A model generated the notes under the pieces. It saw nothing but the letters and a program-made list of their open reading frames with translations. It made no database searches and was not told the origin of the DNA. Shown here one piece after another: positions 39,974 to 47,171 of a stretch of DNA of 64,000 nucleotides (the first letter of the stretch is position 1; every line of letters begins with the position of its first letter). The position numbers and the translations under genes were made by a program. This DNA comes from Candidatus Saccharimonadota bacterium (GTDB lineage Bacteria; Patescibacteriota; Saccharimonadia; Saccharimonadales; Saccharimonadaceae). The stretch covers positions 120,296 through 184,295 of the forward strand of contig JAFWSN010000001.1 in NCBI GenBank assembly GCA_017519305.1, written 5' to 3'.

Positions 39974-42900
39974 GTGAGTACTAAACCGAAAAACGGTGAA
40001 CGTATGTTTTTCACCGAAGGTGACCAAGCACTCCCAATTCCTGATTTGATTGCACATCAAAAGGACTCTTGGGAAGACTTTGTCAAAAACGGACTCCGCG
40101 AGATTTTTACCGAGCTTAATCCAATCGACGATTACACCGGTCAAAAACTCTCTCTCCGTTTTAAAGATTATTATTTTAAAGAGCCGAAGCAAACCGAACG
40201 TGACGCCAAATACAACCTCGCAACCTACGAGGCTCCGCTTCATGTCTTGGTTGAGCTAGAAAACAAGGTAACCGGCACCAAAAAAGAGCAAGACATCTAC
40301 TTTGGTGACTATCCTTGGATGACCGATCGTGCTACCTTCATTATTAACGGTACCGAACGTGTTATCGTTTCTCAGTTGATTCGTTCAGCTGGTGTTTTCT
40401 TTACTGCTGACCACATTGGTCTTCGCAATTACTACGGTGCTAAGGTGATTCCTGGCCGTGGTGCTTGGCTCGAGTTTGAGACCGCTGCAAACGGTTCAAT
40501 CAACGTCAAGATTGACCGCCGCCGCAAGGTGCCAGTCACAACCTTCATGCGCGCTCTTGGTATGACTAAATCCGAAATCAAGAGCAAATTCGAACAGGTC
40601 GATACTGGCGAAATCAATTACATTGATTCGACTTTCGAAAAAGACACCACCTCTACTCAAGGTGAGGCCTTGCTCGAGGTTTACCGCCGTCTTCGCCCAG
40701 GTGATCTCGCCACAGTCGAAAACGCTAAATCAATGATTGAGCGCACTTTCTTCGATCCAAAACGCTATGATTATTCAAACGTTGGTCGTTTCAAGATTAA
40801 CAGCCGCCTTGGCTTTGATACGCCAAACGAACCAAAATTCCGTACTTTGCAGATGGAAGACCTCATTGCTATCGTAGCTGAGATTATCCGTCTCAATAAT
40901 ACGCAAGAACCAGCCGACGATATCGACTCCTTGGCTAACCGCCGCGTCAAACTCGTTGGCGAGTTGGTCCAACGCCAATTCCGTCTTGGTATGCTCCGCT
41001 TGCAGCGCAACATCCTCGACCGTATGTCGATGGCTAACCCAGAAGAAGTTACTCCATCCCAACTCCTTAACTCTCGCCCAGTCGTGGCCGCTGTTAAAGA
41101 GTTCTTCGCTAGCTCACAGCTCAGCCAGTTGATGGATGAAACCAACCCATTCTCTGAACTTGCACACAAACGTCGTCTAAGTTCGATGGGTCCTGGTGGT
41201 TTGACTCGTGAACGTGCCGGCTTCGATGTCCGTGACGCCCACCCAACCCACTACGGCCGCATCTGTACCGTTGAAACCCCAGAAGGTGGTAACGTCGGTC
41301 TCGTGCTTAACCTTGCAACTTATGCTCGCATTAACGAATATGGCTTCATCGAAGCGCCATACCGCGTCGTTAAAAACGGCAAAGTTACTGATGAAGTAGT
41401 CTACGTTGATGCTGCTGCTGAAAACGATATGATTATCGCTGACGCATCTGTTAAATTGAATAAAGATGGTAAATTCGTTGAGGAATGGGTCTCTGCTCGT
41501 GTCCACGGCGCGCCAGCCCAGGTCGAGTCAAAGAACGTTACTCATATCGATGCTGCCCACAAGGAAATTCTTGGTGTATCAGCCAGCTTGATTCCATTCG
41601 TTGAGAAAAACCGTGTTGACCGCTCTCTCATGGCCTGCGCCATGCAGAAACAGGCAGTCCCACTACTCAAGACCGATAACCCAATCGTTGGTACTGGTAT
41701 TGAGCGTGAAGTCGCTAAGAACACTTCACAGGTCGTCTTTGCCGAAGGCGCCGGTGTCGTGAAGAAAGCCGACGGCGAATCTGTTATTGTTGCTTACGAT
41801 AAAGGTGGTGACAAAGAATACAAACTCGTTCACTTCGAAAAGACCAATGATGACCGCTGTTACAACCAACACTGCCGCGTAGCTCGTGGTCAAAAGGTCA
41901 AAAAAGGCGACGTCATCATCGAGGGTGCATCTATCAATGATAATGAACTCGCTCTTGGCCGCGACCTTCTCGTTGCCTTCATGCCATGGCGTGGTTACAA
42001 CATGGATGATGCTATCGTCATTTCTAACCGCCTAGTCGAAGATGATACTTTGACTTCTATCAACATCAAAGACTTCGACGTCGAAGTCCGCGAAACCAAA
42101 CTTGGTCCAGAACAAGTTACTCGTGATATTCCAAACGTTTCTGAACACTCTCTCCGCCACCTTGGCGAAGACGGTATCGTTACAGTTGGTTCCGAAGTTG
42201 CTCCTGGTGATATCCTCGTTGGTAAAATTACGCCAAAGGGTGAACAGGAACTTAGCTCAGAGGAGCGCCTCCTCCGTGCTATCTTCGGTGAAAAAGCCAA
42301 AGACGTCCGCGATACTTCAGTTCGTATGAACGGTTCATCTACTGGTAAAGTTGTCGACGTCCGCGTTTACACTCGTGAACAAGGCCACGAACTCAAAGCC
42401 GGTGTCCTCATGCAAATCAAGATCTTCGTCGCTGAAATGCGCAAAATCGGCGTCGGTGATAAGCTTGCAGGTCGCCACGGTAACAAAGGTGTGGTCTCCC
42501 GCGTTCTCCCAGTAGAAGATATGCCATTCATGGCTGATGGTACTCCAATCGATGTAGTGCTTTCACCAATGGGTGTGCCTTCCCGTATGAACCTCGGTCA
42601 GCTCTTTGAAACTCACCTTGGTATGGCTGCTCGCGCTCTTGGTTACAAGGTCGCAACCCCATCCTTTAACGGTGTCCCAGATGAAAAAATCAGCGATGAG
42701 CTCGAAAAAGCTGGATTTGATCGTGATGGTCGCGTCCAACTCTTCGACGGTCTCACCGGTGAACCATTCGAAGAACGCACCTCAGTCGGTGTGATGCACA
42801 TGCTCAAACTTCACCACATGGTCGAAGACAAGATCCACGCTCGTTCAACCGGTCCTTACACCATGGTTACCCAACAGCCACTCGGTGGTAAAGCCCAGAA

Positions 42901-43348
42901 CGGTGGTCAGCGCTTCGGTGAAATGGAGGTGTGGGCTCTTGAGGCTTATGGTGCTGCTACCACGCTTCAGGAAATGCTCACCATCAAATCTGATGATGTT
43001 TACGGCCGCGCTAAAGCATACGAATCAATCATCAAACGTGAACCAATCGAAGGTCCAAAGCTTCCAGAAGGTTTCAACGTCTTGGTTAAGGAACTTCAAG
43101 GTCTTGGCCTTAAGGTTGACCTCCTCGATCACGGCGAAGCCGCTGATGCTGGCGACGTAATTGAAAAGACCTCACGCGAGATTGAGCGTACCAAAGATGA
43201 TCAATCGATTTACGATCAACACAAGAAGGATGCCGAACCAGAAATCGTCGACCTCGATGCCGAGGAAGAGGCTGCTCTGGAAGATGAAGGCATGGAAATA
43301 ATAGAAGAAGAGGACGATGGTACAGTCGACCTCGGAGAGGAGTTCTAA
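39974..43348 (+). CDS. rpoB: RNA polymerase beta subunit
   Basis: SQLSQLMDETNP, ETPEG, GDKLAGRHGNKG, GGQRFGEMEVWALEAYGA. Confidence 0.99.
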   Translation: MSTKPKNGERMFFTEGDQALPIPDLIAHQKDSWEDFVKNGLREIFTELNPIDDYTGQKLSLRFKDYYFKEPKQTERDAKYNLATYEAPLHVLVELENKVTGTKKEQDIYFGDYPWMTDRATFIINGTERVIVSQLIRSAGVFFTADHIGLRNYYGAKVIPGRGAWLEFETAANGSINVKIDRRRKVPVTTFMRALGMTKSEIKSKFEQVDTGEINYIDSTFEKDTTSTQGEALLEVYRRLRPGDLATVENAKSMIERTFFDPKRYDYSNVGRFKINSRLGFDTPNEPKFRTLQMEDLIAIVAEIIRLNNTQEPADDIDSLANRRVKLVGELVQRQFRLGMLRLQRNILDRMSMANPEEVTPSQLLNSRPVVAAVKEFFASSQLSQLMDETNPFSELAHKRRLSSMGPGGLTRERAGFDVRDAHPTHYGRICTVETPEGGNVGLVLNLATYARINEYGFIEAPYRVVKNGKVTDEVVYVDAAAENDMIIADASVKLNKDGKFVEEWVSARVHGAPAQVESKNVTHIDAAHKEILGVSASLIPFVEKNRVDRSLMACAMQKQAVPLLKTDNPIVGTGIEREVAKNTSQVVFAEGAGVVKKADGESVIVAYDKGGDKEYKLVHFEKTNDDRCYNQHCRVARGQKVKKGDVIIEGASINDNELALGRDLLVAFMPWRGYNMDDAIVISNRLVEDDTLTSINIKDFDVEVRETKLGPEQVTRDIPNVSEHSLRHLGEDGIVTVGSEVAPGDILVGKITPKGEQELSSEERLLRAIFGEKAKDVRDTSVRMNGSSTGKVVDVRVYTREQGHELKAGVLMQIKIFVAEMRKIGVGDKLAGRHGNKGVVSRVLPVEDMPFMADGTPIDVVLSPMGVPSRMNLGQLFETHLGMAARALGYKVATPSFNGVPDEKISDELEKAGFDRDGRVQLFDGLTGEPFEERTSVGVMHMLKLHHMVEDKIHARSTGPYTMVTQQPLGGKAQNGGQRFGEMEVWALEAYGAATTLQEMLTIKSDDVYGRAKAYESIIKREPIEGPKLPEGFNVLVKELQGLGLKVDLLDHGEAADAGDVIEKTSREIERTKDDQSIYDQHKKDAEPEIVDLDAEEEAALEDEGMEIIEEEDDGTVDLGEEF

Positions 43349-43349
43349 T

Positions 43350-46300
43350 ATGGCTTGGATGGATAATTTTATCAGTGCCTCTGACTTTGATTCAATCCGT
43401 CTAACAGTGGCCAATGCGGACGACATCTTAAACTGGAGCTATGGCGAAGTTACAAAGCCAGAAACCATTAACTACCGTACCCAAAAACCGGAACGTGATG
43501 GTCTCTTCTGCGAACGTATCTTCGGTCCAACCAAAGATATCAATCCACATGATTCAAAACTAAAAGGTGTGCGCTCTCGTGAAGCTGCCGTCGATAAGGA
43601 AGGTAACCTCGTTACTAAATCTATCGCCCGCCGCGAACGCATGGGTCACATCTCCCTCGCTGCACCAGTTGCTCACATCTGGTTCATGCGTGGTACCCCA
43701 TCAGCGATTAGTCTTTTGCTCGATATCACTGTTAAAAACATTGAGAAAGTTGTCTACTTTGCAACTTACCTCATCACCGAAGCAAAAGATGAAGAAATTG
43801 CTAAAACTCTCGAATCACTCGAGAACCAAACCATCGCCGCTCGTGAGGCTATCCGCCTTCGCTACGAGAAGGAATCTAAAGATGGTGATGTAAAAGCTCT
43901 TGCTGAAGCTCAGACTAAAGAATTGGCTGAACTCGAGAGTGATTACCAAGCTAAAAAATCGATGCTCGAATCCTTCAAGAAAGGCGGCACGATTACTGAA
44001 GTTGAATATCGTAATCTTCCAGAAGAATACGAAGATTTGATTACTGTCGAGATGGGCGCAACCGCCATCAAGAAAATGCTCGACGAAATCGATCTCGACC
44101 AACTTATCGAAAAACTTCACGCTGAAGCTAAAGAAGCTAAAGGCCAAAAAGAGAAAAAGATTCAAAAACGTCTTAAAACTCTCGAAGGCATGCAGGCTGC
44201 TGGTATCAAGCCAACTGATCTTGTCTTGACTGTTATCCCAGTCATCCCACCAGATCTACGTCCAATGATCGCACTTCCTGGTGGTCGCTTCGCAACCTCA
44301 GATCTTAACGATCTTTATCGCCGCGTGATCAACCGTAACAACCGTTTGCGCAAACTTCTCGACCTTAACGCTCCAGAAGTTATCTGCCGCAACGAGATGC
44401 GCATGCTCCAAGAGGCTGTAGATGCTCTTATTGACAACTCTGCTTCTCATGCTGCCAGCTCTAGCAACGGTCGTCGCAAACTTAAATCACTTTCCGACCT
44501 CCTCAAAGGTAAACAGGGTCGCTTCCGCCAGAACCTTCTTGGTAAACGCGTCGACTACTCTGGTCGTTCAGTGATTGTCGTTGGTCCGGAACTTCGTCTT
44601 AACGAATGTGGTTTGCCAAAACAAATGGCACTTGAGCTCTTTAAGCCATTCGTCATTTCTTGGCTCATTGCTAACGAACACGCCAACAATATCCGCTCAG
44701 CTTCTCGCTTGATCGAAGCTAAAGAAACCGTCGTTTGGGATGCTTTGGACGAGGTAATTAAGGGTAAATATGTGCTCTTAAACCGTGCACCATCCCTTCA
44801 CCGTTTGTCCGTTCAGGCCTTCCAACCACGCCTTATCGATGGTAAAGCTATCAAACTTCATCCACTCGTAGCATCTGGTTTCAACGCCGACTACGATGGT
44901 GACCAGATGGCTGTTCACCTACCACTCTCTGACGCTGCTCAGGCTGAGGCTCGTGAACTCATGGCTGCTGATAAGAACCTTTTGAAACCTGCTGATGGCG
45001 CGCCAGTGCTCGCTATTTATCAGGACGTCGTGCTCGGTGCTTACTACCTTACTTACGACAAGCCAGGTACTGACCAAGGCGATCCAAAAGCCTTCTCATC
45101 AGTCTACGAAGCTGAACTCGCTTACGACCAGGGAATCATCCACTTGCAAACCCCAATTCGCGTGTTTGCGAAGCGCGAGATTCGCGATACTACTCTTGGC
45201 CGTGTTATCTTCAACGAAATCTTGCCAAAAGATTATCCATACGATAACTCAGTCCAGACCAAGAAACACCTTTCTAAGGTCATGGCCGACATCTTTGATA
45301 TGTACGGTGCTGAAGTAACGGTTAAAACCGCTGACGCCCTCAAGGATCTCGCCTTCGAATATGAGACTATCGCTTCAATCTCTACCGCTAAGGATGATTA
45401 TCCAACCTACGACGAAATTGATGACTTCCTCGCTGAAGGTGACGCCAAAACCGCCCTCATTCAGGAACAATTCAACGAAGGTCTTGTTACCGAAGAAGAA
45501 CGTTACAAACTCACTATCGCCAACTGGCGTGATATCGATAAGAAGATTTCTGACTTCCTTCAGAGCAAACTTGCCGAGATGGATACCGATATCGCTGTGA
45601 TGGTTAACTCCGGTGCTCGTGGTAACATTTCTAACATTAAGCTTGCTTCCGCCGAGATTGGTATCATGGTGGATATTAACAACAACGAAATTGAGCTTCC
45701 AGTTAAATCAAGCTACAAGAAAGGTCTTAACACCCTCGAATCCTTCATCGCCACTCGTGGTGCACGTCAAGGTCAGGTGTCTACCGCTCTTCGTACCGCT
45801 GACTCTGGTTACCTCACCCGTCGTCTCGTTGACGTCTCCCAAGATGTCTTTACTACCGACGAAGAAGCTGAAGACCCAGGTTACACTGTTAACCGTGAAG
45901 ATTCTGAACAATCTGGCGTGCCATTCAAGGCATGGATCTCCGGTCGCTATGCCGCCGAAGCTGTTCCAGGCTATGTCGAAGCTGACGAATTGATCACCCC
46001 TGATCTTGCTGCTCAAATCGACGCCGATGATAACGTCAAATCAGTCAAGATTCAATCTGTACTTTCAACCACTGCTGTTAACGGCATCCCACGCAAAGCT
46101 TACGGCGTTGATATGTCTACCCGTGAACTCGTGGCCGCCAACCAACCAGTCGGTGTGATTGCCGCTCAATCCCTTGGTGAACCAGGTACCCAGCTTACCC
46201 TCGATACCAAACACGGTTCTGGTGTGGCAGGTTCTGGTGCTATCGCCCGTGGTCTTCCTCGTGTTGAAGAGCTTCTCGAAGCCCGCAGCCCGAAAGGTCA

Positions 46301-47171
46301 AGCTTACATCTCTACCATCGATGGTACGGTTGAAGCTTGGGAAGATGGTAACCACTATGTGGTTCAAATCACCCCACAATCTGGCGATATTGAACGTTAT
46401 GAACTTAATGGTCGCAAGGCCGAAGTCAAGGATGGTCAATCAGTTAAAGCTGGTGCTACCTTGGTCAAGAAGGCTGGCAAAGATGCTGCTATCAAGGCTA
46501 AATTCGACGGTATCGTTGAACTAGTCAAAGATGGTATTGTGCTCGTTGCTGCTGCTACTGCTCCAGTTCGCGTTGAAATCCCTGGCGATGCTGAACTTCT
46601 CGTCAAGAATGGCGACGTCGTCGCTGCTGGTGATCGTCTCACCACCGGTTCTTTGAACCTCCAAGACCTCATGAAGTACAAAGGTATCGAAGCTGCTGAA
46701 CGCTACATCATGAACGATGTTCTTAACGTTTACGCCGCTCAGGGCCACGAAATCTCACCGAAACACCTTGAGATTCTCGTTCGCCAAATGTTCTCTCGTG
46801 TACAGATCAACGAACCTGGTGACTCTAGCTTCGTTTCAGGCGATATCGTCTCGAAAGCTGCTGCTGTTACCGAGAACCAGAGACTCGAAGCCGCCGGCAA
46901 GGCTCCAGCTACCTGGACCAACTTGCTCCTTGGTATCACCAAAGTCTCTATCTTCTCCGATTCGTTCTTGTCTGCTGCATCCTTCCAGGATACGACTCGC
47001 GTTCTTATTAATGCCGCTATCAACGGTCGCGTCGACCACTTGAACGGCCTCAAAGAGAACGTCATCATCGGTCGCAAGATTCCTGTAGGTACTGGCGTCA
47101 AGCCAATCGAAACCGAAGAGGAATTAATTTCCGAAGGTGAACCAACCGAAGAGGAAATCGCTGAACTCTAA
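43350..47171 (+). CDS. rpoC: RNA polymerase beta' subunit
   Basis: KPETINYRT, GRFRQNLLGKRVDYSGR, NRAPSLHR, NADYDGD, ASFQDT. Start at ATG 43350 after GAGGAG. Confidence 0.99.
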   Translation: MAWMDNFISASDFDSIRLTVANADDILNWSYGEVTKPETINYRTQKPERDGLFCERIFGPTKDINPHDSKLKGVRSREAAVDKEGNLVTKSIARRERMGHISLAAPVAHIWFMRGTPSAISLLLDITVKNIEKVVYFATYLITEAKDEEIAKTLESLENQTIAAREAIRLRYEKESKDGDVKALAEAQTKELAELESDYQAKKSMLESFKKGGTITEVEYRNLPEEYEDLITVEMGATAIKKMLDEIDLDQLIEKLHAEAKEAKGQKEKKIQKRLKTLEGMQAAGIKPTDLVLTVIPVIPPDLRPMIALPGGRFATSDLNDLYRRVINRNNRLRKLLDLNAPEVICRNEMRMLQEAVDALIDNSASHAASSSNGRRKLKSLSDLLKGKQGRFRQNLLGKRVDYSGRSVIVVGPELRLNECGLPKQMALELFKPFVISWLIANEHANNIRSASRLIEAKETVVWDALDEVIKGKYVLLNRAPSLHRLSVQAFQPRLIDGKAIKLHPLVASGFNADYDGDQMAVHLPLSDAAQAEARELMAADKNLLKPADGAPVLAIYQDVVLGAYYLTYDKPGTDQGDPKAFSSVYEAELAYDQGIIHLQTPIRVFAKREIRDTTLGRVIFNEILPKDYPYDNSVQTKKHLSKVMADIFDMYGAEVTVKTADALKDLAFEYETIASISTAKDDYPTYDEIDDFLAEGDAKTALIQEQFNEGLVTEEERYKLTIANWRDIDKKISDFLQSKLAEMDTDIAVMVNSGARGNISNIKLASAEIGIMVDINNNEIELPVKSSYKKGLNTLESFIATRGARQGQVSTALRTADSGYLTRRLVDVSQDVFTTDEEAEDPGYTVNREDSEQSGVPFKAWISGRYAAEAVPGYVEADELITPDLAAQIDADDNVKSVKIQSVLSTTAVNGIPRKAYGVDMSTRELVAANQPVGVIAAQSLGEPGTQLTLDTKHGSGVAGSGAIARGLPRVEELLEARSPKGQAYISTIDGTVEAWEDGNHYVVQITPQSGDIERYELNGRKAEVKDGQSVKAGATLVKKAGKDAAIKAKFDGIVELVKDGIVLVAAATAPVRVEIPGDAELLVKNGDVVAAGDRLTTGSLNLQDLMKYKGIEAAERYIMNDVLNVYAAQGHEISPKHLEILVRQMFSRVQINEPGDSSFVSGDIVSKAAAVTENQRLEAAGKAPATWTNLLLGITKVSIFSDSFLSAASFQDTTRVLINAAINGRVDHLNGLKENVIIGRKIPVGTGVKPIETEEELISEGEPTEEEIAEL

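Follow-up and report, generated by a model that had tools for sequence, protein, structure and literature searches.

Coupled substitutions in the trigger loop and bridge helix of the RNA polymerase of Candidatus Nanosyncoccus (Saccharibacteria)

Within a 64,000-nucleotide stretch of the genome of a Candidatus Nanosyncoccus species (Saccharibacteria; order Saccharimonadales of the phylum Patescibacteriota), referred to below as the window, lies an rpoC gene encoding the RNA polymerase beta' subunit in which highly conserved residues around the active site have been replaced. Its product is the sole beta' subunit of the species. The trigger loop has Asp at the position of Escherichia coli Arg933 and Lys at that of Phe935, the bridge helix has Gln and Ser in place of the Lys781 and Asp785 pair, and the second trigger helix is also changed. 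From comparison with related sequences we consider it likely that these coupled substitutions make up a compensated, co-evolved rewiring of the trigger-helix/bridge-helix bundle in a functional polymerase. How fast, how accurately and with what pauses any cellular RNA polymerase works is set by its moving parts, the trigger loop and bridge helix, and mechanistic models take Arg933 and Lys781 as fixed in bacteria.

The variant active site and its presence in the genus

Residues of the window protein are counted from the 1284-amino acid longest open reading frame (ORF) unless E. coli numbering is stated; the latter is used for positions 781 to 792, 931 to 941 and 1131 to 1139 wherever polymerases are compared, with the exception of residue 787, which like residue 669 is in the ORF count. 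E. coli numbering was anchored on 778-GARKGL-783 and D785 (PMC5791816), T786, the 785-788 turn, I937-A941 and T1131 (PMC13198411), N792 (PMC3957892) and G1136 (PMC4756841), with L930, M932, R933 and H936 taken from the cited papers. The features of the gene that concern us are as follows.

43317 to 47171, forward strand: rpoC, RNA polymerase beta' subunit; longest ORF, 1284 amino acids, from the ORF list and translation
45321 to 45323, forward strand: beta' residue 669, Val; co-varies with the trigger-loop/bridge-helix state
45675 to 45677, forward strand: beta' residue 787, about 30 residues ahead of the bridge helix; co-varies with the state
45756 to 45812, forward strand: N-terminal half of the bridge helix, RGARQGQVSTALRTADSGY, residues 814 to 832; also read as GARQGQVSTALR
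45768 to 45782, forward strand: variant bridge-helix hinge Q818-G-Q820-V821-S822 (E. coli K781-G-L-A-D785)
46176 to 46214, forward strand: first trigger helix, GEPGTQLTLDTKH, residues 954 to 966; L962, D963, K965 and H966 correspond to E. coli M932, R933, F935 and H936
46215 to 46265, forward strand: trigger-loop tip and second trigger helix, GSGVAGSGAIARGLPRV, residues 967 to 983

The trigger loop reads GEPGTQLTLDTKHGSGVAGSGAIARGLPRV (residues 954 to 983), with GEPGTQLTLDTKHGSG encoded at 46176 to 46223. In the first trigger helix M932, R933 and F935 of E. coli are replaced by L962, D963 and K965, and H936 is kept as H966. The codons are ggt for G954 (46176 to 46178), ctc for L962 (46200 to 46202), gat for D963 (46203 to 46205), acc for T964 (46206 to 46208), aaa for K965 (46209 to 46211) and cac for H966 (46212 to 46214). 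In the second trigger helix D1133, T1135 and G1136 become A975, A977 and R978; the tip has one extra residue, and the SI3 insertion is absent. In the bridge helix K781 is replaced by Q818, L783 by Q820, A784 (Ile in relatives) by V821, D785 by S822, K789 by R826 and N792 by D829, and the hinge is GARQGQ where the canonical helix has GARKGL. Residue 787 is probably in the F-loop region, judging from the numbering offset.

An earlier, sequence-only reading of this DNA had placed the trigger loop QLTLDTKH, with its Arg changed to Asp and a Lys two residues on, at 46180 to 46230, and had described a deviant bridge helix GARQGQVSTAL. Translation and codons of rpoC bear out the trigger loop, the span given for it takes in the motif (L962 to H966 being encoded at 46200 to 46214), and the bridge helix is found as described at residues 814 to 832.

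In other respects the protein resembles the canonical beta' of E. coli and Thermus (GEPGTQLTMRTFH / 778-GARKGLADTALK), sharing the order of domains, the NAD(F/Y)DGD motif, Leu for Met932, His936, the GLPRV hinge and T786; it also has G782, P1139, T931 and T934, with Gly at 937. The lack of SI3 is shared with Thermus and Bacillus. It differs from the canonical protein in R933D, F935K, D1133A, T1135A, Arg1136, K781Q, L783Q, D785S and K789R, and three of the conserved residues by which a bacterial active site would be recognized, Arg933, Lys781 and Asp785, are missing.

The same trigger-loop and bridge-helix motifs are present in all 19 same-genus species genomes covering the region, and in 80 of 80 metagenome-assembled genomes (MAGs) named Candidatus Saccharibacteria or Candidatus Nanosyncoccus, which are of gut origin (sheep, goat, yak, buffalo, deer and mouse). 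The genus genomes compared are 79-88% identical overall. The 39-nt segment encoding the first helix occurs in 90 DNA versions in 99 genus genomes, all of which encode the single 13-residue peptide GEPGTQLTLDTKH, and the bridge-helix segment occurs in 88 DNA versions that likewise encode one peptide. A homology search with the trigger-loop region returned near-identical Nanosyncoccus proteins only, and the peptide is present in over 100 separate protein clusters at 90% identity. Assembly error is excluded, because 99 independent assemblies encode an identical peptide through 90 DNA versions and rpoC is single and intact. The trigger-loop and bridge-helix states of Nanosyncoccus are fixed under purifying selection.

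Distribution and covariation across Saccharimonadales

In a diverse beta' sample comprising 150 representatives of 50%-identity clusters, position 933 is Arg in 122/140 and position 935 is Phe in 126/140; Lys781 is found in 139/142 and Asp785 in 137/142. Most genomes in the remainder of the Patescibacteriota carry QLTMRTFH. A scan for D-x-(K/R-like)-H yielded 10 genomes, all Saccharimonadales, and none among the approximately 375 other Patescibacteria genomes scanned. The pattern G-E-x3-Q-L-x-L-D-x-x-H matched 111 of 401 sampled Saccharimonadales genomes, in 87 of 255 genera. Three of these (G081, G299 and G354) were rejected as chance matches outside rpoC, leaving Asp933 in 108/401 genomes (27%); a QLTLDTTH match in G335 was also discarded, as it is not rpoC. 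The 108 fall into at least four configurations: about 91 have QL[S/K]LDSKH, seven QLTLDTKH, seven QLTLDVFH and three QLTLDTFH. Replacement of Arg933 by Asp is thus common in Saccharimonadales, and QLTLDTKH is a minority form of it.

The sequence-only reading had proposed that the distribution among Saccharibacteria be examined, and had held that an assembly error, or a chimera of normal activity together with a variant in common use, would count against it. The error is ruled out by the 99 assemblies; common use of the variant applies in part, with Asp933 in some 27% of the sampled order. By contrast with Asp933, Gln781 is the rarest element of the finding. Among 281 high-quality genomes of the order it occurs only in the family of the window, where it is carried by Nanosyncoccus and eight other genera.

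Position 933 is also changed elsewhere in the phylum (loci L197 and L198). It is Gln (QMTMQTFHK) in all sampled members of family f89, including G490, His (QLTLHSKH) in Patescibacteria family f128, and Gly (QLTLGSKHK) in one genome (G494).

Each trigger-loop type in the order is paired with its own bridge helix, in the following configurations.

Canonical type: trigger loop L[R/K/N]TFH, bridge helix RKG[L/M]IDTAL, second helix [G/E]DIT[Q/T]GLPR
DSKH families: trigger loop ..DSKHR.., bridge helix RK[A/S/T]LIDIAL, second helix D[D/E]TAQGL[S/N/T]R
DVFH/DTFH (families f15, f16, f17, f24 and f27): bridge helix RKGMISTAL (D785S), second helix [D/E]DISQ (T1135S)
DTKH in families f35, f40 and f47: canonical bridge helix RKGLIDTAL, second helix [E/S]DVT[T/R/K]G
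Nanosyncoccus and relatives: trigger loop DTKH, bridge helix RQG[L/Q]VSTAL, second helix GSGAI[A/S][Q/K/R]G

Covariation was examined within family f1, that of the window, on 22 canonical sequences and 10 from the Asp subclade. The only positions that fully separate the two sets are 818, 821 and 822 in the bridge helix, 975 and 977 in the second trigger helix, and 669 and 787. In the hinge the changes K to Q, I to V and D to S are present in 10/10 of the Asp subclade, and the original residues in 22/22 canonical sequences. Residue 669 is Ala in the canonical relatives and Val in 10/10 of the subclade; residue 787 is Ala in 22/22 and Ile, Val or Met in 10/10. D785S and T1135S recur together in an independent Asp lineage (families f15, f16, f17, f24 and f27, with D-V/T-F-H), in 10/10 sequences. 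Asp lineages that also have Lys935 (f35, f40, f47 and the DSKH families) keep D785.

In a set of 69 sequences Ser785 was seen only with Asp933, Asp-x-Phe-His within the order was always accompanied by Ser785, and Ser785 never occurred with Arg, Lys or Asn at 933 where K781 was kept. Two genomes added later, G221 and G341, combine Ser785 with Asn933, in both cases with Gln at 781. Two simple rules were considered and rejected. An R933-D785 salt bridge, such that Asp933 would always force D785S, does not hold, as f35, f40, f47, the DSKH families and G711, from the sister order, have both Asp933 and Asp785. Nor is a constant net charge over 933, 935, 781, 785 and 1133 maintained across the configurations seen.

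The genera related to Nanosyncoccus can be placed in a graded series, given here as trigger loop, bridge helix and second trigger helix.

Step 1: LRTFH, LKTFH or LNTFH; RKGLID; GGDITQ; most genera of family f1
Step 2: LNVFH; RQGLIS; GGDITQ; G221
Step 3: LNTFH; RQGLIS; GSGAISQ; G341
Step 4: LDTFH; RQGLVS; GSG[A/S]I[A/S][Q/K]; G425, G464 and G436
Step 5: LDTKH; RQGLVS; GSGSVAQ; G458
Step 6: LDTKH; RQGQVS..R; GSGAI[A/S]R; G435 and Nanosyncoccus

The four residues Arg, Lys, Asn and Asp at position 933 are single-nucleotide steps apart, and all four states are found. Nanosyncoccus and G435 nest inside the LDTFH/RQGLVS lineages with support of 95/96 and 100/99, and F935K, L783Q, K789R and Arg1136 are therefore derived. 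The order-wide rpoC tree calls for a minimum of six changes of the Asp state.

The DSKH polymerases (loci L175 to L194; G027, G074, G055, G056 and others) have the hinge residue G782 changed to Ala, Ser or Thr, together with T786I and the change of GLPRV to GL[S/N/T]RV. Their remodelling is deeper than that of the window rpoC. They belong to the same order as Nanosyncoccus and resemble it only in Asp933 and Lys935 (QLSLDSKHR...D[D/E]TAQGL[S/N/T]R); the DSKH type keeps K781 and D785, alters G782, T786I, T931S and T934S, adds Arg937 and loses Pro1139, whereas Nanosyncoccus has none of these changes. The two types are not sister groups on the rpoC tree. In the order-wide tree the DSKH type is intermixed with fully canonical families inside a single well-supported clade of 28 sequences; either the set of about 10 motif residues has been gained or lost repeatedly, or parts of rpoC have been exchanged, or the gene tree is misleading.

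In the neighbouring beta subunit, no change tracking the trigger-loop state was seen across relatives in the rpoB fork loop, NMQRQ, GYN(F/M)(E/D)D, HGNKG or GGQRFGEME; some clade-specific changes are present. At rpoB residues 670 to 684 (approximately 41985 to 42005), GYNFEDS (E. coli E813-D814) is GYNMDDA in nearly all of f1 (loci L142 to L160) and GYNMEDA in one sampled f1 genus (G468), a change that does not depend on the state of the trigger loop. GYNFED is retained in the order's other families.

A rewired helix bundle and its alternatives

In a 2026 Michaelis complex of the E. coli enzyme the only residues of the closed trigger loop in direct contact with the substrate are M932, which stacks, and H936, at the beta-phosphate; the polar ligands listed for the nucleoside triphosphate (NTP) are beta R678, K1073 and R1106 together with beta' H936 (PMC13198411). 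The sequence-only reading had both R933 and H936 contacting the NTP. This stands for H936, but for R933 the view goes back to older work, and R933 is not listed as a direct ligand in that structure. Taken alone, the change of Arg933 to Asp, common in the order, probably removes no direct substrate contact, and this lessens the weight that had been put on it.

The Lys-Asp pair of the bridge helix has been studied by mutation in E. coli. K781 has been called 'the invariant lysine in bacteria'; the K781A enzyme is without activity and fails all assays (PMC3077646). Ion pairs form by turns between K781 and either beta' D785 or the beta fork, and K781Q is approximately 150-fold slower and prone to hypertranslocation; archaea and eukaryotes have Glu at the equivalent position (PMC5791816). 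In D785A less than 20% of activity is left (PMC3077646, PMC5791816). Between the trigger helices, Thermus Q1254, equivalent to E. coli G1136, contacts R933 in a backtracked complex, and in polymerases without SI3 residue 1136 is normally Gln, His or Met, mostly Gln (PMC4756841). R933 has been linked to pausing and backtracking as well as to cleavage, and R933A and R933N alter the cleavage of backtracked RNA (10.1101/2024.06.20.599782).

On the reading that we favor, catalysis would be retained in an enzyme that must be active in Nanosyncoccus, as the residues that position the NTP directly are kept as L962 (M932) and H966 (H936). Canonical ionic contacts would be lost, both that of K781 with D785 within the bridge helix and that of R933 with residue 1136 and its neighbors. 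The K781-D785 pair would have been replaced as a pair by Gln and Ser to create a neutral hinge, a reversed, charge-swapped contact between the trigger helices could be made by D963 with R978, and K965 might supply a positive charge near the substrate or the RNA 3' end. The ease of trigger-loop folding and of hinge bending would be changed, with effects on elongation rate, pausing, backtracking and intrinsic cleavage rather than a loss of activity. Folding, pausing and backtracking behavior are thus the properties that have probably changed, and the more general suggestion of the earlier reading, of altered catalysis, fidelity, pausing or inhibitor sensitivity, is plausible. What the comparisons do show is that the trigger loop has evolved in step with both the bridge helix and the other trigger helix, a coupling that the earlier reading, which noted the bridge-helix deviation, did not bring out.

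The E. coli mutants K781Q/A, D785A and R933A/N/Q alter the same positions, and singly they cripple or alter the enzyme. Nanosyncoccus carries such changes together and in a fixed state, and is viable with them, which implies compensation. Co-evolution of the trigger loop with the enzyme background has been documented for RNA polymerase II (Pol II) (PMC12391331).

Several observations weigh against this interpretation. A test of phylogenetically independent pairs gave three pairs in the same direction and none opposite (p = 0.25), the origins being too few for significance. G711, from the sister order, has D-T-F-H-K with the canonical D785, and Asp933 without Lys935 therefore does not strictly require D785S; in G711 Lys937 may substitute for that change. 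The base of family f1 is a polytomy in which the fully canonical G473 falls together with the Asp subclade, so that the early steps may have run in either direction. Moreover, the early branches of the order-wide tree mostly carry Asp, as does G711 (LDTFHK), and Asp933 could be ancestral, with Arg re-acquired. The independent gain of Asp933 from Arg was considered but not upheld, as the trees are compatible with either polarity. Lastly, the proposed pairing of D963 with R978 and the role of K965 rest on one literature contact together with covariation.

A more specific version of the rewiring can be offered tentatively, one that we would put at somewhat below even chances. In this the group records a natural stepwise suppressor path, leading from K781-D785 and R933 to a neutral hinge, a reversed Asp933-Arg1136 pair and Lys935, and thereby to a different regime of folding and translocation, with the intermediates G221, G341, G425, G458 and G435 still extant. 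If this is correct, pausing and backtracking, for example, could be of a kind suited to an episymbiont, and the epistatic path could be rebuilt and measured.

Relaxed constraint alone is a rival explanation. Arg933 would be dispensable in Saccharimonadales, and the changes would be near-neutral drift in small, bottlenecked episymbiont populations, with no coupling and an enzyme of unchanged behavior. Conservative substitutions of R933 and H936 have modest effects, cited as background in PMC13198411, which is in keeping with this. So is the variation itself, for the genera of one family differ at position 933 (Arg, Lys, Asn or Asp) with the rest of the motif unchanged, the path from R through K and N to D takes single-nucleotide steps whose four states all exist, about 27% of the order has Asp, and other Patescibacteria families have Gln, His or Gly. 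Yet K781Q and D785A are strongly deleterious in E. coli (PMC3077646, PMC5791816), and such changes are therefore unlikely to be neutral without compensation. Every configuration is moreover invariant in its own lineage despite saturated synonymous change, and the discriminating substitutions cluster in the bridge helix and second trigger helix and recur in an independent lineage. We consequently regard relaxed constraint by itself as unlikely. In sequence, a rewiring that was adaptive would look the same as one that arose by compensated near-neutral drift in a tiny-genome episymbiont.

Adaptive resistance seems quite improbable. Here the changes in the hinge, F-loop and trigger loop would have been selected for depriving a natural inhibitor of RNA polymerase of its binding site, the inhibitor being a product of hosts or neighbors and directed, for instance, at the bridge-helix cap or the trigger loop. 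Actinobacteria, on which cultivated Saccharibacteria live, are rich in antibiotic producers, which would favor such an origin; we know of no inhibitor for the habitat, which counts against it. Positions 781 to 785, residue 787 in its probable F-loop region and the trigger loop lie where known inhibitors bind, as exemplified by streptolydigin, whose binding site extends along the bridge helix and the trigger loop in its ordered state (PMC3957892). However, position 792 is Asp, the streptolydigin-sensitive state (PMC3957892), and the occurrence of several configurations across gut, groundwater and sludge speaks against a single selective agent. Finally, an artefact of assembly, binning or frameshift, or a decaying or second copy of rpoC, has next to no chance of being correct. 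Nothing was found to speak for it; the source is a metagenome-type assembly of 11 contigs. Against it, one rpoC without internal stops and with all its Pfam domains lies beside rpoB, and the same peptide recurs in 99 independent assemblies, drawn from many studies and host animals, as well as in over 100 clusters at 90% identity.

Natural variation at one of these positions has a precedent. In Deinococcus and Thermus the substitutions G1136M/Q tune RNA cleavage, with residue 1136 in contact with R933 (Esyunina et al. 2016, PMC4756841). There R933, F935, K781 and D785 stay as they are, whereas in Nanosyncoccus both 933 and 1136 are changed, with the charge apparently swapped. Full-text searches that combined either the trigger loop or the bridge helix with Saccharibacteria, TM7, Nanosynbacter or Patescibacteria turned up no paper on the subject.

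There is also some likeness to the eukaryotic enzyme. The Pol II subunit Rpb1 has the trigger loop QMTLNTFH, with Asn at the Arg position, and the bridge helix GGREGLIDTAV. Shared with it are a Leu as the stacking residue, a small non-basic residue at 933 (Asp being isosteric with Asn) and a residue other than Lys at 781, and Asn933 forms occur in sister genera of Nanosyncoccus. The window protein has Asp, Gln, Lys935 and Ser785 where Pol II has Asn, Glu, Phe and Asp, and it is phylogenetically bacterial. The resemblance is at most convergent.

About a quarter of the species of this group are without Arg933, and one clade is also without the Lys-Asp pair; these residues are therefore replaceable when their neighbors change with them. 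Since related genera carry in-between versions, the group provides a natural record of change in a nearly frozen enzyme core. The living intermediates form a ready series for measuring epistasis in the active site, complementing deep mutational scans of yeast Pol II. The variation also bears on the transfer of RNA polymerase inhibitors, and of rules based on E. coli, to bacteria of the candidate phyla radiation.

The rpoC gene and its surroundings

The source genome is a metagenome-type assembly of 786 kb in 11 contigs, 97% complete, in which rpoC gives one full-length match without internal stops. The gene follows directly on rpoB.

39974 to 43348, forward strand: rpoB, beta subunit, directly 5' of rpoC, from translation

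The stop codon of rpoB is TAA at 43346 to 43348, and the longest ORF of rpoC overlaps the end of rpoB by 32 nt. The true start of rpoC is probably the ATG at 43350, giving a protein of 1273 amino acids, as this ATG lies just past the rpoB stop, GGAGAGGAG is found upstream and identical database proteins have 1273 amino acids. Annotated or published residue numbers are accordingly 11 lower than those used here.

The rpoC product matches PF04997, PF00623, PF04983, PF05000 and PF04998 (Rpb1 domains 1 to 5, in order) in Pfam, with E-values from 7.5e-73 to 6.7e-5, and the motif of the catalytic Asp triad is NADYDGDQM at residues 523 to 531. Its best relatives are all bacterial beta' subunits. The motifs DRSLM, HGNKGVVSR and GVPSRMN are present in the window rpoB; they may correspond to the beta ligands of the NTP phosphates, E. 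coli R678, K1073 and R1106.

Three rpoC matches in other genomes contain one in-frame TAA each (G296:C1:549569-551275, G490:C1:27892-31746 and G028:C25:8-697), which could be a sequencing error, a pseudogene or recoding. The window rpoC product has only three cysteines (residues 65, 357 and 431), so that neither of the four-cysteine zinc sites of E. coli beta' is possible. A gene of the GreA/GreB family is present in the same genome outside the window (G000:C10:326932-327135; a 153-amino acid open frame, 63 bits). With GreA encoded in the genome, factor-dependent cleavage is therefore available to this polymerase.

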